From a virus: a stretch of DNA of 64,000 bases. This document shows positions 12,401 through 54,203 of the stretch, piece by piece. The stretch lies in the IMG/VR virus record IMGVR_UViG_3300045988_123906; one strand, 5' to 3'. Below the pieces are notes generated by a model. It had not been told where the DNA came from. It did not search any database and was given only the letters and a program-made list of their open reading frames with translations. Made by a program: the position numbers and the translations under genes. Position 1 is the stretch's first letter. Every line of letters starts with the position of its first letter.

Positions 12401-12649
12401 ATGGACGAGAGAAAATTCTGTATCGGTGATCGCGTAAGGCTTGAGTCTCCGTGGGGTCCTGATGATCCCAATGAGGGTAAAGAGGGAATTGTTGTTGGGT
12501 ATACAGAAGATACCGATTGTCTTCAAGTGCAGCTCTGCGATGGGTACACATGGAGCAAGCCAGAATTTCGCCTGATCGAGCACCTGCATGATGATTGGTG
12601 GGCACCTGTAGAGTCAACCAGTGAATGCCGCTGCGAGTCTCTGCTTTAA
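12401..12649 (+). CDS. outlying member of the C-x-C-[DE]-S-[LI]-L-COOH small-protein family
   Basis: 82 aa. N-terminal GDRVRL (SH3/KOW-like strand pattern) and C-terminal SECRCESLL, matching the array at 19251-22173. Confidence 0.6.
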   Translation: MDERKFCIGDRVRLESPWGPDDPNEGKEGIVVGYTEDTDCLQVQLCDGYTWSKPEFRLIEHLHDDWWAPVESTSECRCESLL

Positions 12650-13470: not shown

Positions 13471-13701
13471 ATGCTGAAGATCACTGTGGGTACCAACACC
13501 AACCGTAAGACTGTCATGGCTACTGAGGACACTACCCTGCGTCAGTGCCTGGAGGAGAACGATATCAACTACTCTGCTGGTCAGACCTCTCTGGATGGCT
13601 GTGTTCTGCAGCCTGGCGACATGGATAAGACCTTTGCCGATATGCACGTTACCGAGAAGGCTTATCTGGTCTGTGTTCAGAAGATGGACAACGCCCGTTA
13701 A
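13471..13701 (+). CDS. 76-aa candidate beta-grasp (ubiquitin/ThiS-like) protein
   Basis: Strong RBS and exclusive AAG/GAG codon use. Ubiquitin-sized. The pattern LKITVG..RKTVMATEDTTLRQCLEE..SLDGCVLQPGD..AYLVCVQK resembles ThiS/MoaD/Ub strands. Ends in MDNAR with no GG. Confidence 0.5.
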   Translation: MLKITVGTNTNRKTVMATEDTTLRQCLEENDINYSAGQTSLDGCVLQPGDMDKTFADMHVTEKAYLVCVQKMDNAR

Positions 13702-15376: not shown

Positions 15377-16354
15377 ATGCAGCCGGTTAAGATGAATGAC
15401 GAACTGATCCAGGGAATTTTGCAGGAGTTCTATGCACAGGCTTCTGCGTTGGGTAATCTGCAGGCGGATAAGTTCTCCTTTAACAAGAATTTTTCCAAGC
15501 CTGCCAAGGACGCAGTCGAGGTGAATTTCACTCTGGAAGCTTATCACGAGATGTGTGCCCTGATCGATCACTTCAGTACCGAGGTCGCCTGGCACGGTCT
15601 GGTGAATCGCATTGATAAGACTCACTTCCAAATCACCAAGATCCTGGTTTATCCGCAGCAGGTCACGGGCGCAACAGTGAATACGGACCAGGAAAAGTAT
15701 ACGACCTGGCTGTATGAGCTGGACGATGAATCCTTTAATACGCTGCGGTTCCAGGGCCACAGTCATGTGAACATGAGCACTTCTCCCAGCGGTGTGGATA
15801 TGCAGAATCAGTGGGATCTCATTGATACTCTGAGCTCTGAGGATTACTACGTCTTTATGATCTGGAACAAGCGGCGGGAGTATAACGTCCGTGTTGTGGA
15901 CATGGCGGACAATGTCATCTACAGCGGCGATGATGTCAAGGTGACGATTGGAGAGGCCGATACGAAAGGGTTTCTCGAACAGGCGGAAGCGCTCGTCCAA
16001 AAGCCGGTCACAACCACATACAGCGGCTACAACAATGGCTACAGCGGCAACTACAATGGTGCAGCTTACTCCGGCAACTACAGCGCGGGTACAGCAGCTT
16101 ATCAGGGAGGCGCGTTCGTTGGTAACACAAGCTCCGCAGCCGCGTCCACGAAAACAAAAGCAGAAACGAAACCGGCAGCCACGACGAACCCGGCGCTGAA
16201 AACTGTCACGGGTGGAGCCGCCCCTAAGATCGATTCAGCCAAGAGCAAGGGAAGCGAATCCAATCTGATGAAGTATTATCAGGAGAATCCGAACGACCTG
16301 ATGAACAATTGGAATTCGAGCTGCTATCCCTACGCTGACGCATTCCAGGACTAA
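15377..16354 (+). CDS. JAB/MPN+ (JAMM) metalloprotease with G/Y/N/S-rich low-complexity tail
   Basis: HSHVNMSTSPSGVD matches HxHx7Sx2D exactly, with an upstream Glu (TEVAWHG). The C-terminal ~110 aa is low complexity (YSGYNNGYSGNYNGAAYSGNYSAG...). Confidence 0.8.
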   Translation: MQPVKMNDELIQGILQEFYAQASALGNLQADKFSFNKNFSKPAKDAVEVNFTLEAYHEMCALIDHFSTEVAWHGLVNRIDKTHFQITKILVYPQQVTGATVNTDQEKYTTWLYELDDESFNTLRFQGHSHVNMSTSPSGVDMQNQWDLIDTLSSEDYYVFMIWNKRREYNVRVVDMADNVIYSGDDVKVTIGEADTKGFLEQAEALVQKPVTTTYSGYNNGYSGNYNGAAYSGNYSAGTAAYQGGAFVGNTSSAAASTKTKAETKPAATTNPALKTVTGGAAPKIDSAKSKGSESNLMKYYQENPNDLMNNWNSSCYPYADAFQD

Positions 16355-16368
16355 GAAAGGAAACAACA

Positions 16369-17049
16369 ATGGATCTGAGCAAAATCGAAATGGTGTTTGA
16401 CCCTGCGTCTGTTAAGGGTCGCATTCATATCATCGGCTGTGGTTCGGTCGGCTCTACTGTGGCTGAACTGCTGGCACGATACGGTCTGACCAAGTTCACT
16501 CTGTGGGATATGGACTTTGTCGAACCCAAGAATATCGTCAACCAGATGTTCTTCCAGCAGGATATCGCCCATCCCAAGGTGGAAGCTGTGGGGAACATTC
16601 TGTGCAATGTGAATCCTGATATCAAAGAGGATCTGGTTCTGATGCCCAATGGCTGGCAGGGCGAAACCGTCAAGGGTTATGTGTTCCTGGCCGTGGACAG
16701 CATCGAGATCCGCAAGCAGTTCCTGGAGAAGAATAAGTACAATCCTGAGCTGCTCGGTGTGTTCGATATCCGCACTGGCCTGTATGATGCACAGTGCTGG
16801 TCGGCCGATTGGAAGGATCGCAAGCAGATCGACAATCTGAAGAACTCCATGAACTTCACTCACGAGGAAGCAAAGGTAAGTACGCCGGTGTCTGCATGTG
16901 GCATTGTTCAGGGTGTTGCACCGACCGTTCGTTTCATCTGCTGTCTGGCGGTTACGAACTTTATCAATTTCGTGGGAGGCAACCAGCTGAAGAAGCAGAT
17001 CGTTGCAACCCCGTTCATTCTGGGTGAAGAGAGCGTCATGGCGTTCTGA
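16369..17049 (+). CDS. minimal E1-like (ThiF/MoeB-family) adenylation protein
   Basis: Rossmann GxGxxG (IIGCGSVGS) followed by WDMDFVEPKNIVNQ...HPKVEA, the ThiF/E1 nucleotide-binding signature. Only 226 aa. Confidence 0.7.
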   Translation: MDLSKIEMVFDPASVKGRIHIIGCGSVGSTVAELLARYGLTKFTLWDMDFVEPKNIVNQMFFQQDIAHPKVEAVGNILCNVNPDIKEDLVLMPNGWQGETVKGYVFLAVDSIEIRKQFLEKNKYNPELLGVFDIRTGLYDAQCWSADWKDRKQIDNLKNSMNFTHEEAKVSTPVSACGIVQGVAPTVRFICCLAVTNFINFVGGNQLKKQIVATPFILGEESVMAF

Positions 17050-17097: not shown

Positions 17098-17329
17098 GCG
17101 CACTTAGGCCAAGCCAAGTGTATCGAATTGTTAAGAAGAGGGGGTCCTCCCCCTGTGGCATCAACATTGCAAAACTAAACGCGTGCCGCCGGATGACGGT
17201 GCTACCACAGGGTTCGAAACGATCTTCCTGGGTCACCCGAATGCGGTTATATAGCCAATTTCAGCATCCAATCATGATCGGGACCTCCTACAGCATGCAT
17301 TATAGCCTCAAGAAACCCATTTAGATCAC
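17098..17329 (+). ncRNA. GC-rich structured module B, immediately upstream of the RT
   Basis: Diverged 5' box GCGCACTTAGGCCAAGCCAAGTGTATCGAATTGTTAAGA and 3' box ATTTAGATCAC (17319-17329), 24 nt before the RT start. Contains hairpin GGGGGtcctCCCCC and the 8-bp helix CCCTGTGG/CCACAGGG. Confidence 0.5.
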
Positions 17330-17352
17330 GATGAAATCATAAAGGAGAAACA

Positions 17353-18585
17353 ATGTACATTACATATCTGAATCCTCCTAAGACTCGGCAGATCACTTTT
17401 GATGAGATCCTTGCCGGTGTCCAGAATGTAGAAGCACTGCACTATGGCGGCAGCAACACATCTACAATGACCGTGTGCCGCAATGACTTAACCGCCAAAC
17501 TTCGCGCTATCACAAATGTTCCTGAGATGATCGAGAAGTTGGTGGACTACAACGTGAAATATGCGACGCTTGAATCCAGCGATATCCCGAGTCACTATTC
17601 TCACTTTGAGATTCCAAAGAAATCTGGTGGCTGGCGACCCATTGATGCGCCAGATGAAACTCTTTCTGATGCACTGATCGAGCTGCGGGAACTGCTGAAG
17701 AGCTTTATGATCGCAGATTATCACACGAATGCTTTCGCATATATTCCCAATCGCAGCTTTATCGATGCGGTCCGTAAGCATCAGGCAGGTCACAATAAAA
17801 CCGTCGTTGATGAGGCGACCGGCATGAAAAAGGTCGTCAATTATCAGAATCATTGGGCGGTCAAGTTCGACTTCCATGGTTTCTTTCCCAGTACGACACC
17901 GGATTTTCTGCTCGGCATGATGAGTGTGATCTATCCATTTGCTCTGATCATGCGGGATGCACATGGCCGAGATGAACTGGCAAAGGCGGTCAACCTGTGC
18001 TTTCTTCGCAACGGCCTGCCGCAGGGAACTCCCATCAGTCCGTGGCTTACCAATGTGATGATGATTCCGTTTGACCACTGTATCACTCGCAAGCTGTGCT
18101 ATGGCTACAAAGCAAAGGACGGCATCGATCGCGAGTTTACTTTCACACGATATGCAGATGATATCCTCATCAGCTGTTATCATCACTTTGACCCGATGGA
18201 AATTCAGCAGATCATCATTGATGCGTTGAACTTCTTTCATGCGCCGTTTACTCTGAACGAAACGAAAACGCATTACGGCAACCGGCACTCCAGCAAGAAC
18301 TGGTGTCTCGGCTTGATGTGGAATAAGGACAATCAGATCACGGTTGGCTGGCGCAATCTTAAAATGTTCCGTTCGGCTATGACGAACTATATCGATACAA
18401 AGCAGCATGGCAGGACCTGGGAGCTGGAAGATCTGCAAAAGTTCAATGGCAAGCTCAACTATTATCACATGGTCGAGCCTGAGGTGATCGACGAGCTGGT
18501 TCGTCGTTACAATGCAAAGTTCGGCACTGATATTATTGCGATGCTCAAAGAAGATCTTCGTCCCAAAGAGGGCGTTGTTGCATAA
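17353..18585 (+). CDS. reverse transcriptase, retron/Abi/UG-like
   Basis: RT motifs in order: NRSFIDAVRKH, FDFHGFFPS, LPQGTPISPWLTNV, RYADDILIS (YADD box), NETKTH. 410 aa with no endonuclease or maturase tail seen. Confidence 0.85.
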   Translation: MYITYLNPPKTRQITFDEILAGVQNVEALHYGGSNTSTMTVCRNDLTAKLRAITNVPEMIEKLVDYNVKYATLESSDIPSHYSHFEIPKKSGGWRPIDAPDETLSDALIELRELLKSFMIADYHTNAFAYIPNRSFIDAVRKHQAGHNKTVVDEATGMKKVVNYQNHWAVKFDFHGFFPSTTPDFLLGMMSVIYPFALIMRDAHGRDELAKAVNLCFLRNGLPQGTPISPWLTNVMMIPFDHCITRKLCYGYKAKDGIDREFTFTRYADDILISCYHHFDPMEIQQIIIDALNFFHAPFTLNETKTHYGNRHSSKNWCLGLMWNKDNQITVGWRNLKMFRSAMTNYIDTKQHGRTWELEDLQKFNGKLNYYHMVEPEVIDELVRRYNAKFGTDIIAMLKEDLRPKEGVVA

Positions 18586-19250: not shown

Positions 19251-19517
19251 ATGGAATTGATGTATAAGCCAGGCGATAAAGTAATGATTCGCCCGGATCT
19301 GAACTGCCGTGAAATTTATTGCATGAGATCAGGTCGCCACAATGGGGACTATACCTACAATGTGGTTGATCAAATGGTAGATCAGGCTGGAAAGGTTTTT
19401 ACGATTCAGGGTCCTCGCCACGGAGGAGCTGGATATACTCTGGAAGAGTCTGATTATGGCTGGACCGACGAGATGTTTATTTCTATCAATGAGTGTTGCT
19501 GTGATAGCATTCTGTGA
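19251..19517 (+). CDS. CxC[DE]S[LI]L-tail family protein, copy 1 (88 aa)
   Basis: YKPGDKVMIRPDL..YCMRSG..WTDEMF..NECCCDSIL-COOH. Confidence 0.65.
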   Translation: MELMYKPGDKVMIRPDLNCREIYCMRSGRHNGDYTYNVVDQMVDQAGKVFTIQGPRHGGAGYTLEESDYGWTDEMFISINECCCDSIL

Positions 19518-19525
19518 GGTGAACT

Positions 19526-19801
19526 ATGAAATACAGATACGATGTCGGTGACGCAGTGGTCGTAAAGCGAGATCTCAGAAAGAATTGCAGCTACTTTATG
19601 ATGTTCGGCCCCAATCCCAAAACATACAACACTGTTGTCGACGAAATGAAAGAGCTCGAAGGCAAGACCGTTCATATCGCAGAACATATTGATGGTCAAT
19701 ACTTCATTGAAGAAGACAATAAATCATATGCCTGGACGGATCAGATGTTCCTGACGCAGGACAAATACAGCGCTGCTTGTGTTTGCGAAAGTTTACTATG
19801 A
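19526..19801 (+). CDS. CxC[DE]S[LI]L-tail family protein, copy 2 (91 aa)
   Basis: YDVGDAVVVKRDL..WTDQMF..AACVCESLL-COOH. Confidence 0.65.
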   Translation: MKYRYDVGDAVVVKRDLRKNCSYFMMFGPNPKTYNTVVDEMKELEGKTVHIAEHIDGQYFIEEDNKSYAWTDQMFLTQDKYSAACVCESLL

Positions 19802-19817
19802 TTGGAATGATTTGAAA

Positions 19818-20021
19818 ATGCAGAATCCCTGCCATTATTGTGTGGCTCCCAAGCGTTATCCCGGGTGTCACGATCACTGTCAGGAGCGCCAGCAGTACGT
19901 CGAAACTGAGCTGACACAGCAGCACCAATACAAAGAAAAGTGCCGCATGATCAACGATTTTGATAATGAGCTATACACTCATAACCTGCGTTACAGAGAA
20001 AAATATCAACACAGATATTGA
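19818..20021 (+). CDS. small Cys/His-rich protein (67 aa)
   Basis: MQNPCHYCVAPKRYPGCHDHCQERQ, a possible metal-binding cluster. RBS is weak. Confidence 0.4.
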   Translation: MQNPCHYCVAPKRYPGCHDHCQERQQYVETELTQQHQYKEKCRMINDFDNELYTHNLRYREKYQHRY

Positions 20022-20045
20022 TTTACATAGAAAGGATGAAGATCA

Positions 20046-20867
20046 ATGGCAGAACCGGCACGTAAGCGCAAGGATCGCGTAGTTCAGTTCCCGCAACAGC
20101 CTGGTTCCGAAGCTCACATCACCATGAGCGAAGCCGAGCTGAAGGAAATGATTTGGGACATCGTGGCTGCCGCTCGCAAGAAAAAGCGCAAGACAAAGCC
20201 AACCAACAGCCTTTATACAAAGGATGGCCGCATCAAACCTTCGCCTGCTGATCCGATTCGTTCCAAAGAGGATTTCCAGAAACTGGCGAATTATCTCGCT
20301 TCCAACGGCGACCCCAAGTTTCGTCTACGCAACAAGGCGATTTTCGTGTTCGGGTGCAGTCTGGGTATTCGTTGTGGCGATCTTCTCAGTCTGAAAACGG
20401 CCGATGTTTACGAACAGGATGGCAGTGTGAAAGAGCATGTCGAACTGATCGAAGAAAAGACCCGTAAGCGCAATGTGTGCAAGATCCCTAAGATGGCAGC
20501 TGACATTCTTGAGGATTATTTCGATGAACAGAATTTCGAGATTAGTCAATCTGATTATCTGTTTCGCAGTCGCAAGGGTGGTCCTCTGACAGTGCGCGGA
20601 TTTTATCGGATCTTGAAAGAAGCAGGGAAAGCGTGTGAGCTAGATATCGATCTGTCCACTCATACCATGCGCAAAACCTATGCAATGGCTGCACTTCAGA
20701 CAGCGAAAAAAGCTGGTACATCTGGGCAAACGATCGAGATGCTTCAAGAAAAGTTTAAGCATAGCAGCCAGCGTGTCACGATGCATTATGTCAAGGCAGA
20801 CCAGGATAAGATGGACGAAATGTCTGATCGTGTGTCGGACTGGTTCGATGATGGAGGAACGGAATGA
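20046..20867 (+). CDS. tyrosine recombinase (phage integrase family)
   Basis: Catalytic signature present: R in LGIRCGDL, HxxR in HTMRKT, and H..Y in HSSQRVTMHY. 273 aa. Confidence 0.8.
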   Translation: MAEPARKRKDRVVQFPQQPGSEAHITMSEAELKEMIWDIVAAARKKKRKTKPTNSLYTKDGRIKPSPADPIRSKEDFQKLANYLASNGDPKFRLRNKAIFVFGCSLGIRCGDLLSLKTADVYEQDGSVKEHVELIEEKTRKRNVCKIPKMAADILEDYFDEQNFEISQSDYLFRSRKGGPLTVRGFYRILKEAGKACELDIDLSTHTMRKTYAMAALQTAKKAGTSGQTIEMLQEKFKHSSQRVTMHYVKADQDKMDEMSDRVSDWFDDGGTE

Positions 20868-21139
20868 CTGATTACATGTATCACCCAGGCGACAGAGTCC
20901 GCGTTCGACTTGATCTTTCGGAACATGAAGAATATAAAATGTTGTCTGGCGAAAATAAAGGTCAACGCTGGGTGATTTTTGACTGGATGAAAAAATACGC
21001 AGGACAAGAGATCGTCATTCAAAAGATCGCACAAACTAGTGGTGTTTACAGAGCACAAGGAATCGATGGCTGCATCTGGGCTGATGAGATGTTTGAGCCG
21101 CTTGTCGTGGACGAGTGCGTTTGTGATTCATTGCTGTAA
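20864..21139 (+). CDS. CxC[DE]S[LI]L-tail family protein, copy 3 (91 aa)
   Basis: YHPGDRVRVRLDL..WADEMF..DECVCDSLL-COOH. ATGA overlap with the recombinase stop. Confidence 0.65.
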   Translation: MTDYMYHPGDRVRVRLDLSEHEEYKMLSGENKGQRWVIFDWMKKYAGQEIVIQKIAQTSGVYRAQGIDGCIWADEMFEPLVVDECVCDSLL

Positions 21140-21160
21140 TGGAATGGAGGAAGTAGAGCA

Positions 21161-21433
21161 ATGTCAAGATATTATCAGTATAAAAACGGAGAGGAAGTGT
21201 TTGTTCGACCTGATCTGGAGCGCGGTGTTCAGTATTATATGCGTTCCGGTTACCGAGCAAATGATGTCAGTGTCACCCTTACTTATTCTCAGGCGCAGCG
21301 GCTTGGCACTGTGGTTCATATTGCCGGCAAGCGCAATGGCCGCTATTACATCGATGAAGATTATGGGTGCGATCGGTGGACGGACGAGATGTTCGCAGCA
21401 CCCAACGAATGTATCTGTACGCCGCTGCTGTGA
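21161..21433 (+). CDS. CxC[DE]S[LI]L-tail family protein, copy 4 (90 aa)
   Basis: YKNGEEVFVRPDL..YYMRSG..WTDEMF..NECICTPLL-COOH. Confidence 0.65.
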   Translation: MSRYYQYKNGEEVFVRPDLERGVQYYMRSGYRANDVSVTLTYSQAQRLGTVVHIAGKRNGRYYIDEDYGCDRWTDEMFAAPNECICTPLL

Positions 21434-21441
21434 GGTGAATT

Positions 21442-21705
21442 ATGGAAGGGAAATACCTGTACGAAATTGGCGACCTCGTAAAAGTTCGCGACGATATTGA
21501 TCGAAACATGTAGTATCGTATGCGTTCCGGTCCCAAAGCTGGACGCGAACCCGGGACTGTATATAATATCGGAAAATATAAGGGGTCAGTCCACAAAATC
21601 ATTTCTTATGAGCAGGGTTATTACAAAATCGATAATGACCCTGATCATCTGTACTGGTCTGATGAAATGTTTGAGCCGATGTCGGTAAACGAAAGCCAAC
21701 AGTAA
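21442..21705 (+). CDS. family copy 5 with in-frame TAG (21511-21513) and no CxC tail
   Basis: gaggtg RBS as for copy 2. MEGKYLYEIGDLVKVRDDIDRNM*YRMRSG..YWSDEMFEPMSVNESQQ. The TAG aligns with the CAG (Gln) codon of copy 4. The tracked ORF 21520-21705 is only the post-TAG part. Confidence 0.5.
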
Positions 21706-21721
21706 CATTGTGACATTGGAT

Positions 21722-21871
21722 ATGTCGGAACTTCATGGGCAGTTGGTTCATATTAAAGATTATTCTTCTCACGGGCACTATATCGTAGAAGAAACATATG
21801 ATTTTAGATGGACTGATGACATGTTTTCTGGTTTGGCAAACAATGAGTGCTGCTGCGAATCTCTGTTATAA
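21722..21871 (+). pseudogene. truncated family copy 6 (C-terminal half only, 49 aa)
   Basis: MSELHGQLVHIKDYSSHGHYIVEETYDFRWTDDMFSGLANNECCCESLL. It lacks the N-terminal GD..V..DL half and has no clear RBS. Confidence 0.45.
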
Positions 21872-21882
21872 GGAGGCACAAG

Positions 21883-22173
21883 TTGCAAGATACAAAATAT
21901 CATGTAGGCGATGTCGTTATTGTCCGCCAGGATTTAGATTTTAGAAAATGTTATTGGATGCGATCAGGTGGAAAAGAAAACGCTCCTTGGAGGAACGTTG
22001 TTTCAGATGTTGTAACTGAAGACATGATAGAGCTTTGTGGACAGACTATCGAAATCGAAGAAATAGTCGATACGGTCGATGGTAAAAAATACAGAGCAAG
22101 AGGTCGCTACTGGACAGACGACATGTTTTCTGACCAAATCGGCAATGAATGTTACTGTGAATCACTTCTGTAA
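21883..22173 (+). CDS. CxC[DE]S[LI]L-tail family protein, copy 7 (TTG start)
   Basis: aaggagg RBS 5 nt before TTG 21883. YHVGDVVIVRQDL..YWMRSG..WTDDMF..NECYCESLL-COOH. Confidence 0.6.
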   Translation: MQDTKYHVGDVVIVRQDLDFRKCYWMRSGGKENAPWRNVVSDVVTEDMIELCGQTIEIEEIVDTVDGKKYRARGRYWTDDMFSDQIGNECYCESLL

Positions 22174-22193
22174 ATTTGAAAGGAGAAATTATC

Positions 22194-22577
22194 ATGGAAA
22201 AGAATCTGTTTGAAATCGCAACTCGTAATCGCTATCGCTTTAACTACAAGGGCGTTATGACCGTAGAGGATCTGTGGAGTCTGCGGGTCGAGGATCTGGA
22301 TGCCATCTTCAAGATGCTGAACCGTCAGAAGAAGACCGCCGATGAGGATTCTCTGCTGGCCACCAAGAGCGCCGAGGATCAGGATCTGGCCAATAAGATC
22401 GATATCGTCAGGTATATCGTGTCTGTCAAGCTGGCTGAGGCAGCGGAGCGTGTGTCTGCCGCAGAGAAGAAGGCACAGCGCGATAAGATCATGGAGATCG
22501 TGGCAAAGAAAAAGGATAAGGCGCTGGAAGACATGGGCATCGAGGATCTGATGAAGAAGCTGGAAGAGCTGAACTGA
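22194..22577 (+). CDS. hypothetical coiled-coil protein (127 aa)
   Basis: aaaggag RBS before ATG 22194. Strong AAG/GAG codon bias. No motif recognised. Confidence 0.6.
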   Translation: MEKNLFEIATRNRYRFNYKGVMTVEDLWSLRVEDLDAIFKMLNRQKKTADEDSLLATKSAEDQDLANKIDIVRYIVSVKLAEAAERVSAAEKKAQRDKIMEIVAKKKDKALEDMGIEDLMKKLEELN

Positions 22578-22594: not shown

Positions 22595-23698
22595 ATGAAA
22601 GTTGTTGAAAGCGCAAGCAATCTGTTCCTGTATGGCGACGATATGAAGGCGTATGACAAGATCCCGGCGGGTACCTATGATATCCACTGTTCTGAGATGA
22701 CCGGTTTCTATCTGTCCCGCCGCCCTGATATGGTCATCAACGAAAAGGTGTATGGTGTCCAGAGCAGCAAGGTTGCCAAAGTGCTGAATTCGTTCAAAGT
22801 GTTCAACCGCAACCTGGGTGTCATCCTCAGCGGCAACAAAGGCATCGGCAAATCTCTGATCGCTAAGATGATTGCAATCGAGGCCGTCAAGCAGGGCTAT
22901 CCTGTCATTCTGGCTAACCGCTATATCGGCGGTATCGCCAATTTCATTGAATCCATCGATCAGGAAGTTATGATCCTGTTTGACGAGTTTGATAAAACCT
23001 TCAAGTCCCGGGATAATGAAAATCCGCAGGATACGATGCTGAGTCTGTTCGATGGCACCAGCGCGGGCAAAAAGCTCTTCGTTGTCACCTGTAACCAGCT
23101 CAATGGTCTGAACGATTATCTGGTCAACCGTCCCGGCCGCTTCCACTATCACTTCCGCTTCGATTACCCGGGCGCTGATGAGGTCGAAACCTACCTCAAG
23201 GATAAGCTCGAAGAGAAGTATTACGATCAGATCCCAGCTGTGGTCGATTTTTCTGGCAAGATCGATCTGAACTATGACTGCCTGCGGTCTATCGCCTTTG
23301 AATTGAATCTGGGCACTCCATTCGCAGAGGCCATCAAGGATCTGAATATCATCAATATGAACGAGACCAGCTACAAGCTCACTGTTATCTTCAAGGATGG
23401 TTACCGTGCGTCCAGCACCAAGCGTTTTGATATGTTCAATGGTGCACAGCGTATCTGTTTTGATGTCAAGCTGAAAGATGGCTACTGGCCTGATTTCTAT
23501 ATCAATACTGAGGATATCCAGTATAACCCCGCCAACGGTGAGCAGTTCATTGATGGAAAGAAGATTGATGTGGATAATCCGTATTCCAAGAGTGATGACG
23601 ATGAAAAGGATCGTTATGAAGCTTTTGAAAAGGACAACGGTGTGGTCAAAGTCATCATCTCTCGTACTCGTGAAAGAGACATTCACTACATGGTCTAA
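22595..23698 (+). CDS. AAA+ ATPase
   Basis: Walker A GNKGIGKS and Walker B MILFDEFD, with a C-terminal domain of unknown type. 367 aa. Confidence 0.75.
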   Translation: MKVVESASNLFLYGDDMKAYDKIPAGTYDIHCSEMTGFYLSRRPDMVINEKVYGVQSSKVAKVLNSFKVFNRNLGVILSGNKGIGKSLIAKMIAIEAVKQGYPVILANRYIGGIANFIESIDQEVMILFDEFDKTFKSRDNENPQDTMLSLFDGTSAGKKLFVVTCNQLNGLNDYLVNRPGRFHYHFRFDYPGADEVETYLKDKLEEKYYDQIPAVVDFSGKIDLNYDCLRSIAFELNLGTPFAEAIKDLNIINMNETSYKLTVIFKDGYRASSTKRFDMFNGAQRICFDVKLKDGYWPDFYINTEDIQYNPANGEQFIDGKKIDVDNPYSKSDDDEKDRYEAFEKDNGVVKVIISRTRERDIHYMV

Positions 23699-35338: not shown

Positions 35339-35367
35339 TTGTAAAGTGTGAATGAATATGGTATAAT
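35339..35367 (+). promoter_or_regulatory. sigma-70/sigma-A-type promoter with extended -10
   Basis: -35 TTGTAA (35339-35344), 17-nt spacer, then TGgTATAAT (35359-35367), 44 nt before the toxin-gene ATG. Overlaps an inverted copy of the CACACTTTACA motif. Confidence 0.6.
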
Positions 35368-35410
35368 AAGGACACAAAGTAAAACAGATGGTCAGCAAGG
35401 AGGTCATAAT

Positions 35411-35826
35411 ATGTTTAAGGCTGGCTCAAGTGTCCCCAAAATCGGTGAGATTCGTCTCGGTTATGTCGCAGATGTTAAGCAGGAAGGAAAACTGTTCATA
35501 AATATTATGGCGTTCATCCTTATCTGATCGTCAGCAACAACATCTACAACAAAAATTCTGGCCAGTGTGAGGTGATTCCTTTCACCACAAAACGCTGGAA
35601 CAGCCGCAACCCGGTCCATGTTGATTTTGGTGTAGGTGAAGTCGATGGCTTACCGCATGAATCCACTCTTGTGATCGAAGGCCGCGATACGCTGTTAAAC
35701 TCTCAGCTGAGCGAACCAATCGGAACGTTCTCTGATAAGAACTGGCAGCGCGCAGCGAACGCCATGGTGATCCAGTGTCCGATGCTTGCGGCGGCATTCA
35801 GTACAAATCTGGTCTCTGCATCATAA
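35411..35826 (+). pseudogene. MazF/PemK-family toxin gene interrupted by a frame change (-1 on AAAA at 35488-35491)
   Basis: Frame 1 gives MFKAGSSVPKIGEIRLGYVADVKQEGK and stops at 35525. The -1 frame continues TVHKYYGVHPYLIVSNNIYNKNSGQCEVIPFTTKRWNSRNPVHV..., the PemK/MazF core pattern. RBS is aaggagg. No antitoxin ORF upstream. Confidence 0.65.
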
Positions 35827-40752: not shown

Positions 40753-40828
40753 GCGCCTGTATCTTAATTGGTAAAGAAATGGGCTCTAAACCCAGGGTAT
40801 CCGTGTTCGAATCATGGCAGGCGTGCCA
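40753..40828 (+). tRNA. suppressor tRNA, anticodon CTA (reads UAG)
   Basis: Acceptor GCGCCTG/CAGGCGT (G1-U72), D arm TCTT-AATTGGTA-AAGA, anticodon arm (A)TGGG-CTCTAAA-CCCA(G) with U33 and A37, T arm CCGTG-TTCGAAT-CATGG, G73, encoded CCA. Anticodon at 40786-40788. Confidence 0.75.
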
Positions 40829-50593: not shown

Positions 50594-52053
50594 CCAAGGC
50601 GATTGAAAAGATCGAAGCAAATCGTGTACAGGCCGAAGCAAGCTTTGTTTTTTGTCTGTGGAAAGATCCCCAGCGATACGACGATTACAAAAACATCAAC
50701 GAAGGAACAGATAAAACCCTGATCTGTGAAGAACAGGTTTTCTATTTCATGGTCGGTCGCGGCATTCGTCGGCAGGGCTTTTCTAATATCGACAACATCA
50801 CTCTTGATACATATCTGGCGGACAAACCCACACTCCGTCGGCACTACGAAGAACTGAACGGCTGGCGTGCTTGTAAGGCGATGATGGATCTGGTCGATCC
50901 GGAGAACACGGACAGCTATTACAACCAAATCGCCAAAATGAATACGCTCAAAATCTTGGCCACCAAGTATGATGAGCTACTCAGTCACCCGGAGCGCTTT
51001 GATGATGCCACGAATGAAGATGTGTATAACACTTTCGAGCTACTCAATAACAGTGTGGCGCTGACAACCGGCAACGATTCAAAGATCGAAAATCTTGTTG
51101 TTGATGAAAAATACATCCAGCAGTGCAATGCCGGCATGGATCAGGGAATCAGTTATGCAGCCGGAGCACCTCTATTGAATTATCTGACACTTGGAGCTCC
51201 TGTTGGGGATATGTATTTGTTTGCTGGTCACAGCGGCACAGGAAAATCAAGTTTTATCTTTGAAAATATGGTTCTCCCGTTTGCAGAAGGTGGTACAGGC
51301 GTTGCGATTATTTCAAACGAGATGCAGAGCAAGGCATATAAAAACATGTTACTGGTTCACATTCTCACGAAAGAATTGGACTACTGGAAAATCACTCGTA
51401 AAAAGCTCAGTCTTGGCCATTTTAATGAAGAGGAGTTGGAGATGCTTCGTAAGGCAGCAGCCATTACAAAAGAAAAGTATTCCAATATTCGCTTTGTAAA
51501 AATGTTCGAAAACGACACTTCTAAAGTGCTTCAGTATATCAAGCGTCTTGCAAGATCCGGCACAAAGGCAATCATCTATGACACCATGAAATCGGATGAC
51601 GGTATTGACGATAAGATGTGGCAGGCATTGTTGATGAACAGCCGTCGCATTTTTAATACCGTTTCAAAAGAACAGGTCGCTATGATCTGTACTTTCCAGT
51701 TGGCTTTACATACTACGAATCAGCGATGGCTTGATGCAACTTGTCTGTCAAACTCAAAACAGATAAAAGAAGTGGTGGCTCAAGCTGTCTTTGCCAGGGC
51801 ATGTTGGCAGGACGAATATACCGGTGAGAAATTTGATTGTAATCCCTATCGGCGGAATAAGGACAATCCAAAAATCAAAGAGCCATTCATCATGGATAAA
51901 GACAAAAAGTATATGGTTCTTTTTCTGAACAAAACTCGTTCTGATGAAGATGGCCAAACTCTTCTTTATCAGTGGGATTCAGCTTGGAACCGTTGGATCG
52001 AAATTGGTTTCTGTACCATTGTAAATGACCATGGCCAGTACGACCGCAGATAA
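50584..52053 (+). CDS. DnaB-type replicative DNA helicase
   Basis: Walker A AGHSGTGKSS and Walker B AIIYDTMKSD, with an N-terminal helical domain. 489 aa. Confidence 0.75.
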   Translation: MDLTKAIEKIEANRVQAEASFVFCLWKDPQRYDDYKNINEGTDKTLICEEQVFYFMVGRGIRRQGFSNIDNITLDTYLADKPTLRRHYEELNGWRACKAMMDLVDPENTDSYYNQIAKMNTLKILATKYDELLSHPERFDDATNEDVYNTFELLNNSVALTTGNDSKIENLVVDEKYIQQCNAGMDQGISYAAGAPLLNYLTLGAPVGDMYLFAGHSGTGKSSFIFENMVLPFAEGGTGVAIISNEMQSKAYKNMLLVHILTKELDYWKITRKKLSLGHFNEEELEMLRKAAAITKEKYSNIRFVKMFENDTSKVLQYIKRLARSGTKAIIYDTMKSDDGIDDKMWQALLMNSRRIFNTVSKEQVAMICTFQLALHTTNQRWLDATCLSNSKQIKEVVAQAVFARACWQDEYTGEKFDCNPYRRNKDNPKIKEPFIMDKDKKYMVLFLNKTRSDEDGQTLLYQWDSAWNRWIEIGFCTIVNDHGQYDRR

Positions 52054-52077
52054 ATAAGAAGGGAGGCTTCGATATGA

Positions 52078-53097
52078 ATGGATGTCAATGTATTAACGTC
52101 TAAGCTTGAAAATCAGCCAGACAAAATCATTCAGATCCTTGAAGCACTTGGCTTTGAAAATATCAAGTTCAATCCTCTCAAAAATAATCTGCGGTTCGCT
52201 CGGGAAGAGCAGCGAAATCCAACCAGTTGTATGCTCGATTGCGGCACGCTTCGGTTCTTTGTTTTCTCTACAAACCAAAAGGGGAATCTTTTCAGTCTGA
52301 TTATGGATGTCAAAAGATGTTCGTTTCCAGATTCTTTGAAATTCGCTGCACAAAAGGCTGGCATCTCAGAAGAAGAGGTCAACATCAAAACGCATTGGCC
52401 GTTCGGTGGATTCTTTTTAAAACTGATGCCTGACTATGAAGAAGAGATGGAAGATTTAAAAACATACCCGGAGGAGACTCTGGAACCGTATGCCAACAAA
52501 TACAATCTCCGCTTCATCAAAGATGGTATCAGCCTGGATACTCAGCAAAAATTCGGTGTCGGTTATGATGTGGAATCAAATCGAATCACGATCCCAGAGC
52601 GTGCAACTGATGGTTCTTTGGTCGGCATCATGGGCCGCGCAAATTATGAGTGTGAACACGATAAACGCTGGTATCCATTGATCGCTTGTCCACGCAGTAA
52701 AACACTGTTTGGATACTCTGAGAATTATCATCGAATTCAGGAAACAGGGAACATCGTTCTGTTTGAATCTGAAAAGGCAGTCCAGCAGTGCGATTCGTTC
52801 GGCTGCAATATTGCCCTCGCAACGTGCGGCTGTCATGTATCAGATACGCAAACCAAATACATCAAACGAATGCTGCCAAAGAAAATCATTCTGGCTTACG
52901 ATGAAGGGCTTGAAGAAGAGCACCTGGTCAACGAATGCAAAAAACTTATCGTGAACAATCCGATCTTAAAAACAAAGGTTGGATACATTTGGCCTGACGG
53001 GTTGATTCAAGAGGGCTCCAAAATGAATATCGCTGATCTTGGTAAGGATGTCTACAAAGAGGGCGTAACAAAATATGTGAAATGGGTAGAGGAGTGA
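52078..53097 (+). CDS. DNA primase (Toprim domain)
   Basis: Toprim Glu context IVLFESEKAVQQ and acidic ILAYDEG. Lies between the helicase and the nuclease. Confidence 0.65.
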   Translation: MDVNVLTSKLENQPDKIIQILEALGFENIKFNPLKNNLRFAREEQRNPTSCMLDCGTLRFFVFSTNQKGNLFSLIMDVKRCSFPDSLKFAAQKAGISEEEVNIKTHWPFGGFFLKLMPDYEEEMEDLKTYPEETLEPYANKYNLRFIKDGISLDTQQKFGVGYDVESNRITIPERATDGSLVGIMGRANYECEHDKRWYPLIACPRSKTLFGYSENYHRIQETGNIVLFESEKAVQQCDSFGCNIALATCGCHVSDTQTKYIKRMLPKKIILAYDEGLEEEHLVNECKKLIVNNPILKTKVGYIWPDGLIQEGSKMNIADLGKDVYKEGVTKYVKWVEE

Positions 53098-53102
53098 TGT
53101 AA

Positions 53103-54203
53103 ATGGGACAAAGAGTAATAGCCCCTGAGCTACAGGCACTGTATGACAAAGGGGCGCAGGTGTACAGCTATTCAAAGCTCGGCACCATCCATGATTGTCC
53201 GTATAATGCGTATCTTACATATATCGAAAAGCGTGATCAGTGCGCCAATGTGTATTCCTCTCTTGGTACTGTGGTTCACGATACGCTGGAAGGAATTGTT
53301 GAAGGAAAGAACACAGAAGCAGATATCGGTCCTGCTATTGAAAACGGTCTGGACGAACTCGATATGCTTGGGATTGATTTTCCCAAAACGAGAGATGGCG
53401 GCAATGGCATCCGCGATAAATGGATCTCAAACATGCGTTGTATGGCTCGTGATTGGGTCAGTCCAAAAGGAGAGTATGAAATCGAGAAGTTGCTTATTCT
53501 GAAGCTTCGTGATGATCGCTATCTTCAAGGTTATGCGGATTTGATTCGTATTATGCCAGACGGGCGGCTGCAGGTGTTGGATATCAAGACTTCCAGTCAG
53601 TTTAAGGACGAAGATCTGCTTCACTATGGTCGTCAGCTGGTCGCGTACACTCTGGCGCTTGAACAGGCCGGATTTAAAACGGCCGCTCCTTGTTGGATCA
53701 TGGTGAAATACTGCAAAGTCGTTTACCAAACCGGCAAAGGCAAGCTGGCCAAGCAGCAAGAAAAAGTGCTCGACCGGTGCAAAGTTGGCTACACGCTGCG
53801 GTCTACGGTTCGTTCCAAGATGAAAGCCGCCGGGTATGACAGCGAACAGATCGAAATCGTTACCCAGGCATTTATCGAATCGAATGATATCAACGATCTG
53901 CCGGAAGATATTCGCTGCCAGTTCAAATTGACCACATATGTCAGACCATATCCTGTTACCGATGAATTACGCAAAGAATGCATTGATTACATAAACGAAA
54001 CAGCAGATGAATTCGAGGAGCGGCAACGCAGCGGCGAATGGCCTGCACGAGAGATCGAAGAGAAAAATGGCAGTCCCAATTTCTTCTGTACCAATCTCTG
54101 TGGTCATCGCAAAACATGTGAACCGCTTCGGGATTGCATCAACAAGCGGCCGTTTTATGAGGCAAAAGACCCAAGCGTGGTCGGTATAGACGATTTGTTT
54201 TAA
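53103..54203 (+). CDS. PD-(D/E)XK nuclease, Cas4/RecB-like with Fe-S Cys cluster
   Basis: GYADLIRIM..LQVLDIKTS (D...D/ExK). One N-terminal Cys (HDCPYNAY) plus C-terminal CTNLCGHRKTC, matching the Cas4/AddB-type 1+3 Cys pattern. Confidence 0.7.
   Translation: MGQRVIAPELQALYDKGAQVYSYSKLGTIHDCPYNAYLTYIEKRDQCANVYSSLGTVVHDTLEGIVEGKNTEADIGPAIENGLDELDMLGIDFPKTRDGGNGIRDKWISNMRCMARDWVSPKGEYEIEKLLILKLRDDRYLQGYADLIRIMPDGRLQVLDIKTSSQFKDEDLLHYGRQLVAYTLALEQAGFKTAAPCWIMVKYCKVVYQTGKGKLAKQQEKVLDRCKVGYTLRSTVRSKMKAAGYDSEQIEIVTQAFIESNDINDLPEDIRCQFKLTTYVRPYPVTDELRKECIDYINETADEFEERQRSGEWPAREIEEKNGSPNFFCTNLCGHRKTCEPLRDCINKRPFYEAKDPSVVGIDDLF

Follow-up and report, generated by a model that had tools for sequence, protein, structure and literature searches.

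In a 64,000-nucleotide stretch of viral DNA (IMG/VR record IMGVR_UViG_3300045988_123906; hereafter the window), positions 19251-22173 hold an array of genes for small proteins that share a C-terminal tail, E-C-x-C-[ED]-S-L-L. Analysis of the window and of related genomes revealed that this tail is under selection as a peptide, that it recurs on unrelated proteins at three loci, and that it differs between relatives while being uniform within a genome. We consider it probable (at about 60%) that the tail is a tag which docks to a single co-evolving partner, itself probably encoded by the phage, and that the SH3-like bodies of the array proteins are variable modules. The window derives from a large tailed phage, of which near-identical and related IMG/VR contigs measure 140-150 kb and come from human-gut samples. 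The relatives compared (G002-G019), whose loci were gathered with degenerate DNA patterns, include the complete genomes G004, G005 and G019, of tail classes A, B and C as defined below; G011 also belongs to class A.

The array lies on the plus strand between genes for a retron-type reverse transcriptase (RT, 17353-18585) and an AAA ATPase (22595-23698). Motifs common to it are Y-x-x-GD-x-V-x-V-R-x-DL, M-R-S-G, W-[TSA]-D-[EDQ]-M-F and the terminal E-C-x-C-[ED]-S-L-L. All open reading frames (ORFs) listed in the initial annotation of this DNA were present, and the N-terminal pattern and W-[TSA]-D-[EDQ]-M-F motif that it described hold across the array. Its count of six full-length copies and one truncated copy was corrected: the ORFs exist, but copy 5 is damaged by an in-frame TAG and by deletion of its tail, so five copies are intact. 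In total the window contains five intact paralogs of about 90 aa (88-96 aa), two remnants and one outlier, as follows.

19251-19517, plus strand: copy 1, 88 aa, SH3-like body, tail NECCCDSIL; matches phrog_7488 at E 1e-5
19526-19801, plus strand: copy 2, 91 aa, tail AACVCESLL; matches phrog_7488 at E 9e-12; the copy used for AlphaFold2
19779-20021, plus strand: Cys/His-rich ORF, 80 aa, overlapping copy 2 at its end; belongs to the cassette that interrupts the array
20046-20867, plus strand: tyrosine-recombinase-like protein with a Phage_integrase domain, embedded in the array and splitting it together with the 80-aa ORF
20864-21139, plus strand: copy 3, 91 aa, tail DECVCDSLL
21161-21433, plus strand: copy 4, 90 aa, tail NECICTPLL
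21442-21705, plus strand: copy 5, in-frame TAG at 21511-21513, tail lost to a deletion, ending NESQQ
21710-21871, plus strand: half-copy, 3' half only, tail NNECCCESLL; a full-length gene of 90-97 aa in relatives
21883-22173, plus strand: copy 7, 96 aa, tail NECYCESLL
12401-12649, plus strand: outlier, a solitary tagged protein of 82 aa, tail SECRCESLL, adjoining the cassette of a ubiquitin-like (Ubl) protein

Seven of the 1,135 stop-to-stop ORFs in the window carry the tail ending. SLL is the ending of 242 of the 4,729 ORFs in 47 related loci, against 33 occurrences of the next commonest tripeptide, and these counts exclude chance as the source of the shared ending. In the 18 tagged genes of G004, the tail serine is encoded by AGC, AGT, TCA, TCT and TCG (both the TCN and the AGY box), each tail leucine by five or six codons, and cysteine by both of its codons; nothing conserved, and no inverted repeat, was found 3' of the stop codon. 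Among class A orthologs, the ratio of non-synonymous to synonymous differences (pN/pS) was 0.20 in the tail, 0.33 in the linker and 0.38 in the body. The pS of the last seven codons (0.17) was close to that of the body (0.18), with the non-synonymous divergence of the tail halved. Orthologs of copy 2 at 64-98% identity all retained CVCESLL, the linker changing. The tail is thus selected as a peptide. The view of the initial annotation that the nucleotides of the tail differ between copies, with conservation at the peptide level, is confirmed and quantified by the codon diversity and the pN/pS values, and its exclusion of recent gene conversion is borne out by the copy 2 orthologs. Its interpretation of the tail as a recognition tag gains support from this peptide-level conservation on a free C-terminus that is predicted to be flexible.

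A role of the tail as DNA, that is, as an att site for the embedded recombinase, was ruled out by the scrambled codons and the lack of shared sequence after the stop. Integron cassette arrays likewise combine unrelated small genes, a lineage-specific shared 3' end (attC) and a tyrosine recombinase inside the array. However, the shared 3' end here is a peptide with scrambled codons and no conserved sequence after the stop, and neither a conserved core nor inverted repeats of the attC type occur at the 3' ends of the tagged genes of G004.

The same ending was found at three loci in G002, the nearest virus record, and in seven complete genomes.

Tagged locus 1: the SH3-like array, 5-11 copies
Tagged locus 2: one to three small-barrel genes adjoining the Ubl cassette, the outlier of the window being among these
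Tagged locus 3: 7-8 overlapping genes, about 6.5 kb beyond the left edge of the window

The bodies encoded at locus 3 matched no Pfam or PHROG family and were unrelated to one another. Overall, tagged bodies were SH3-like or ORFans of up to 197 aa, and the number of tagged ORFs per complete genome was 18 in G004 (class A), 14 in G005 (class B) and 22 in G019 (class C). The tail is portable, one short terminal peptide borne by unrelated proteins.

Pattern scans and whole-genome reads resolved the tails into classes. Classes A-C come from otherwise similar phages of about 150 kb. Classes D and E come from distant relatives with the same gene order, in which p510, a protein of the Ubl cassette, is 33-44% identical.

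Class A: (N)E-C-x-C-x-S-L-L; in this phage E-C-x-C-[ED]-S-L-L
Class B: [P/S/L]-[F/L]-x-C-[K/R/H]-S-L-L
Class C: hydrophobic-x-F-x-S-L-L, without Cys at the conserved position
Class D: ..L-L-F-x-D, as in YCPLLFWD, CVKLLFDD and VPNLFFED
Class E: S-x-x-[F/Y/L]-x-x-L-L, as in SILFNQLL, YSLLL and YFEQLL, without Cys

The distant relatives also show an A/B hybrid ending, C-Y-C-K-S-L-L. Tagged proteins at all three loci carry one class per genome. The class A pattern gave 10-19 hits in each of 10 of 18 genomes and none in the other 8, and the class B pattern gave 11-14 hits in each of 7 of the 18, with 0-2 stray hits elsewhere; reversed-pattern controls gave 0-1 hits. Classes A and B were never mixed in any of the 18 genomes, even between arrays 30 kb apart. 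In the class C genome, Phe replaces the conserved Cys in all 22 tagged proteins, and the other Cys is gone in all but one tail. The tail, which had been described as invariant, therefore varies, but in concert across all tagged proteins of a genome.

These substitutions bear on the chemistry of the tail. A CxC metal site and lipidation were among the roles first suggested for it, and a function of this kind, in which the cysteines bind metal, form a redox pair or are lipidated, would be in keeping with the C-x-C pair in all class A tails and the one Cys kept in class B. However, the class C genome, with its 22 Phe-substituted proteins, and a distant relative with class E tails dispense with the conserved Cys, and some class A copies have Tyr or Phe at -7 in place of Cys. 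Given that Cys is missing from classes C and E, a metal site, disulfide, thioester or Cys-linked lipid is not the conserved function, and we regard Cys-based chemistry as extremely improbable. CaaX prenylation does not apply either, the Cys residues standing at -5 and -7 and not four from the C-terminus, and being absent from the conserved position in classes C and E. Classes A-C (and, loosely, E) share hydrophobic residues at -5 and at the last two positions, and in most cases have one at -7 as well, an i/i+2 spacing of the kind that suits an extended strand.

The body domain was examined by family searches and structure prediction. No Pfam family scored above threshold in scans of all copies; the best window copy reached 14.7 bits against SH3_15 (Mind bomb SH3 repeat), below the 24-bit gathering threshold. 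PHROG 7488 and 17705, phage proteins without assigned function, align with the N-terminal ~70 residues. Of the seven array members, six matched phrog_7488 at E 9e-12 to 3e-3, copy 4 more weakly (E 0.013), and the outlier had no match. At E<=1e-3, a family profile built from the seven window sequences retrieved 2,716 cluster representatives. Of the 150 best, 81 were longer proteins with 1-16 domain stretches (most with at least two), some fused to other modules, and none of these 81 ends in the tail; multi-repeat homologs from this search pass the SH3_15 threshold (36.4 bits). The remaining ~65 are single-domain proteins of 81-108 aa, and nearly all keep the tail, ending in ...C.SLL or ...F.SLL. 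Proteins of SH3_15 and of PHROG 7488/17705 appear to have the same body domain, mostly in multi-repeat or fused form, and the single-domain tagged form is confined to this phage group.

AlphaFold2 modeling of copy 2 with 61 diverse sequences gave pLDDT values >90 for residues 1-76 and of about 55 for the linker and tail. For the body, the confident prediction is an SH3-like barrel resembling the REP domain of Mind bomb; linker and tail are predicted to be flexible. In Foldseek searches, phage 'Mind bomb SH3 repeat' proteins were found in BFVD at E 6e-7 to 5e-4. The best neighbor in the PDB was the MZM-REP domain of Mind bomb 1 (probability 0.84, TM 0.55), but its E of 0.67 is not significant, and the SH3-like fold, of the kind that the initial annotation had proposed to check, is a prediction. 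The outlier had been taken for a paralog of the array. It does share the tail, but its body matches the family profile only over the N-terminal strand (hhalign 97.6%, first ~20 residues, 20 columns), and it belongs to a different small-barrel family, with orthologs of its own that carry a DDWW motif.

The array genes are under purifying selection, but the proteins of several change 3-8 times faster than those of neighboring genes. The ratio of non-synonymous to synonymous substitution rates (dN/dS) was 0.32, 0.42 and 0.34 for copies 1, 2 and 3 and 0.54 for the outlier (range over the bodies 0.08-0.54), compared with 0.05-0.11 for the E1-like enzyme, RT, recombinase and AAA ATPase. The copy number of the array genes ranges from 2-3 up to 11 between genomes. 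Fast evolution, copy-number change and loss by deletion fit a diversifying repertoire of binders or effectors.

One such deletion lies within the array of the window. It was mapped by alignment to G004, which is 98-99% identical in the flanks.

21692-21696, no strand: deletion junction, 3,080 bp missing relative to G004, with 5-bp microhomology

Window 21100-21696 corresponds to G004 54418-53822 and window 21692-22300 to G004 50741-50133, with a 5-bp overlap at the junction; the missing segment is G004 50742-53821. In G004 and other relatives this segment contains the tail of copy 5, three more copies, a 709-aa gene and the 5' half of the next copy. The loss of the copy 5 tail and the half-copy are thus the two edges of a single 3,080-bp deletion. 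The 709-aa gene, which in relatives is assigned to Pfam DUF8224, was found within the array of most of the relatives examined, with 85-93% identity between tail classes. Intact orthologs of copy 5 elsewhere (e.g., P0048) end in NECCCESLL. The TAG of copy 5 arose by a single C>T change, the codon being CAG in G004 (98.8% identical); it was the only clear in-frame TAG noticed in the window.

The array proteins have three parts: a small, compact and rapidly changing barrel, SH3-like by prediction and about 75 residues long; a linker, predicted to be flexible, whose length varies (about 3-10 residues); and a C-terminal motif of the general form hydrophobic(-7)-x-hydrophobic(-5)-x-S-L-L-COOH. According to the docking-tag reading, they would be a repertoire of small cytoplasmic proteins whose tails, extended like a strand and with the carboxylate free, would all fit into a groove of the same reader protein. 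This reader would bring all tagged proteins to the same machine or place, and the bodies would provide differing binding or effector specificities.

The case for a phage-encoded reader comes from gene exchange. We compared 94 genes shared with G004 across three class A, two class B and one class C genomes. Twenty-two of the 94 were at least 10 identity points closer to a class B or C genome than to the most distant class A genome; gene exchange therefore crosses class boundaries, which suggests encounters between phages of different classes within the same cells. The AAA ATPase, for example, was 94% identical in class B G005 and 61% in class A G011. Because the tags of a genome switch class together while the classes exchange other genes, we infer that the reader is phage-encoded and co-evolves with the tags. 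A conserved host reader accepting all classes would not enforce uniformity, but a reader in the same genome would.

The AAA ATPase was itself considered as a class-specific reader and rejected, since its alleles cross classes.

22595-23698, plus strand: AAA ATPase of the classical clade, 420 bp 3' of the array, its position kept in distant relatives

Its best solved relatives are Afg2, p97, Rix7, Msp1 and Mpa. This gene also enters a reading of the tail as an ssrA-like degron, in which the non-polar free C-terminus would pass the proteins to an AAA+ unfoldase or protease, either ClpXP/ClpCP of the host or the AAA ATPase of the phage, for timed turnover or protease saturation. The predicted flexible Leu-Leu-COOH end and the presence of this ATPase downstream of the array, in distant relatives as well, would suit a degron. 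However, the AAA alleles do not follow tail class, a conserved host protease leaves one-class genomes amid gene exchange unexplained, and class D ends in F-x-D, which is not non-polar. We regard a degron as improbable.

The class-wide switching also bears on mimicry of host hub ligands. Hub-docking motifs such as the beta-clamp motif QL[SD]LF, the gp45-binding tails of T4 gp43, gp33 and gp55, the SSB tip and the class I PDZ ligand D-S-L-L are likewise flexible, with a free carboxylate and alternating hydrophobics, and direct several proteins to one hub. A tail imitating a class I PDZ, beta-clamp QL[SD]LF-like or SSB-tip-like ligand would block or hijack a host hub. The class I PDZ consensus is matched by [DE]-S-L-L-COOH, clamp-binding motifs have an end similar to S-L-L, and the phage has its own Pol III alpha with no clamp found. 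The consensus [S/T]-x-hydrophobic-COOH is present in classes A-C but not in class D or in part of class E (Q-L-L), and no Gln stands at the position equivalent to that of the beta-clamp motif in classes A-C. A change from acidic to basic at -4, loss of Cys and an LLF.D extension, each affecting a whole class, fit one conserved host site poorly. Bacterial PDZ domains are mostly extracytoplasmic, but the tagged proteins have no signal peptide, as read from their translations and not by a predictor. Mimicry of a host hub therefore seems very unlikely. Compared with hub-docking motifs in general, about 20 ORFan proteins and not replication enzymes are tagged here, the tag class changes between close relatives, and neither a clamp nor a PDZ domain was found in six phage genomes.

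A further alternative is a virion cargo signal, in which the tail would dock to the procapsid interior (major capsid protein, scaffold or portal) and about 20 proteins would be packaged and injected as a first-wave arsenal. The encapsulin cargo-loading peptides and the T4 capsid targeting sequence are, like the tail, short terminal peptides that address unrelated small proteins to one partner, and in T4 the internal proteins are likewise encoded in hyperplastic arrays whose tag is constant. The tagged loci have the same form, unrelated small bodies with one short terminal tag in hyperplastic arrays, and the class C tail (V/I-x-F-x-S-L-L) resembles the alternating-hydrophobic loading peptides of encapsulins. 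Two head genes of G004 were weakly class-linked, 97814-99463 (549 aa) and 100082-101077 (331 aa, assumed to be the capsid protein), with no Pfam family; the 331-aa gene was 87-88% identical within class A versus 81-83%, a small margin of 4-6 points. However, the arrays lie among early-type genes (tRNAs, retron RT, NAD salvage, replication), with which they are apparently co-transcribed, and class switching across a genome has not been described for encapsulin or T4 tags. The T4 internal-protein tag, in contrast, stands at the N-terminus and is cleaved. We consider virion packaging an unlikely function of the tail.

Fourteen genes were class-linked by at least 10 points, ten of them non-tagged. 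Besides four tagged genes, these were four members of the block that includes the array (the embedded recombinase, RT, JAB protein and p510); three genes of an unlinked block at 33-37.6 kb of the window (SLT, a gene MazF/PemK-like by eye, and an ORFan); a PIN-domain gene adjoining the other array; and two small or medium ORFans. The recombinase-like gene was 72-82% identical within class A versus 53-57% to classes B and C, and its place within the array was the same in all relatives examined, including those with p510 identity as low as 33%. The adjacent 80-aa Cys/His-rich ORF was found in class A and C relatives and had no family match. None of the class-linked genes outside the array (GP88, SLT, PIN_4, MazF/PemK-like by eye, ORFans) suggests a reader.

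Upstream of the RT gene lies the Ubl cassette.

13471-13701, plus strand: Ubl-like protein, 76 aa
13831-15363, plus strand: p510
15377-16354, plus strand: JAB protein
16369-17049, plus strand: ThiF-type E1

The block Ubl-p510-JAB-E1-RT-array-integrase-AAA is syntenic in all relatives, down to 33% p510 identity; the E1-like gene occurred in 16 of 16 genomes tested, a count that is uninformative within one clade. Identities of the JAB protein were 67-70% within class A versus 48-49% to classes B and C, and those of p510 were 57-63% versus 41-45%. The Ubl-like protein showed the sharpest break, with 72-87% within class A, 31% to class B and no detectable match in class C. Its orthologs (G003, G005, G011, G019, L148, L149 and L150) are 75-82 aa long and have a conserved end, ...[M/L/H]-D-N-A plus 0-4 residues. 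In two distant phages the protein stops right at D-N-A, and others add R, VVM, LAA or TGMN. This looks like the pattern expected of a cognate E1 substrate trimmed by the JAB protease, with an end in Ala/Asn and not Gly-Gly. No E2 domain was recognized in a Pfam scan of the cassette proteins. AlphaFold2 gave a confident two-lobed model of p510 with a long central helix (pLDDT 89, pTM 0.51), and 37 residues, including Q402-P403-H404 and C410, are invariant among 28 homologs.

The initial annotation had speculated that the E1-like enzyme adenylates the tails. In that case the tail carboxylate would be adenylated by the E1, or the tail trimmed by JAB, so that the SH3-like proteins themselves would be conjugated. 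In favor of this, the E1 and JAB genes keep their synteny with the array throughout and have alleles that match tail class; moreover, the tagged proteins have the size of ubiquitin, and their conserved tail, predicted to be flexible, shows a Φ-x-Φ-x pattern. A protein need not have a beta-grasp fold for its C-terminus to be acted on by an E1-type enzyme, as CBASS Cap2 illustrates, and known E1/JAB systems (CBASS Cap2/Cap3, Bil operons, QbsE/QbsD-type trimming) likewise pair E1-like and JAB genes with targets that have flexible conserved tails. However, the cassette has a Ubl-like protein of its own, ending in ...DNA with or without an extension; the tagged bodies are SH3-like or ORFan and not beta-grasp; and the tails end in Leu-Leu and not in small residues, with no E2 recognized by Pfam. 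To our knowledge, bulky Leu-Leu or F-x-D ends are unlike any E1 substrate. Of the features of ubiquitin-like modifiers, the tagged proteins show neither the beta-grasp fold nor the Gly-Gly or small-residue end, and it is the neighboring 76-aa protein that fits the latter. Adenylation of the tails, as first formulated, is thus quite unlikely, the E1 having its own Ubl partner and the tagged ends being bulky.

A looser link of the tails to this module is possible. Since the Ubl/p510/JAB/E1 module keeps its synteny with the array in every case and has alleles that track tail class, a component of it is our preferred candidate for the reader of the docking tag, though the preference is weakly held. 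As a possible but doubtful extension, the tagged proteins may form a plug-in adaptor library for the ubiquitin-like machine of the phage, the tail docking the body onto a component of the module. Each body would then choose the target, of host or phage origin, for modification or protection. Tag and reader would co-evolve into incompatible classes (A-E), which would act as barriers to module exchange between co-infecting phages.

Several points weigh against a docking tag with a phage-encoded reader. No reader was found among the candidates examined. PDZ_2 (PF13180) gave 0 hits at E<=1 in six complete phage genomes, the control genomes all scoring, and no sliding clamp (DNA_pol3_beta) was found in the six. 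The p510 model had no significant PDB neighbor, the best being MoaB/MogA-like (E 0.49, TM 0.17; uninformative). The association of genes with tail class is exploratory, coming from 7 genomes and confounded by ancestry and by linkage of the Ubl block to the array, and with ten non-tagged genes class-linked it picks out no single gene. The reader may also be a host protein that differs between host strains. Finally, every genome compared is a metagenome assembly.

Other features of the window characterize the phage. There are 16 tRNA genes, one of which, at 40753-40828, has a CUA anticodon (labeled Pyl by ARAGORN; amber suppressor), and TAG is a rare stop, ending 2 of 78 long plus-strand ORFs. 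Also encoded are Pol III alpha, a DnaB-like helicase, ligase and NrdD. A scan for promoters and terminators gave no signals above shuffled expectation. A tail-pattern scan of genome contigs found one contig of a metagenome-assembled genome ("uncultured Peptococcaceae", 12.5 kb), from which no host could be assigned. At window 35348-35823, the ortholog of a 159-aa protein of G004 (MazF/PemK-like by eye) is split over two frames, 35488-35823 and 35348-35491, suggesting a frameshift. The distant relative L149 has an ArdA anti-restriction gene (1552-2169) 5' of the cassette and an IS605-type OrfB/TnpB gene (17168-18271) within the array.

Terminal address tags are known in principle as signal peptides, capsid targeting sequences, encapsulin loading peptides and hub-docking motifs. 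A full-text literature search found no report of a phage with one C-terminal tag on 14-22 unrelated small proteins, or of a tag that switches class genome-wide between close relatives. Phages of this group are abundant in human-gut metagenomes, single protein clusters having hundreds of members. The tag offers a handle on about 20 ORFan proteins at once: a reader would make the function of the whole set testable, possibly together with that of the Ubl/E1/JAB/retron module. The class structure amounts to a natural specificity experiment, in which A, B and C tails can be swapped. If the tagged proteins do serve as an adaptor library, they would represent a phage-encoded, E3-like substrate-recruitment system of an undescribed kind.

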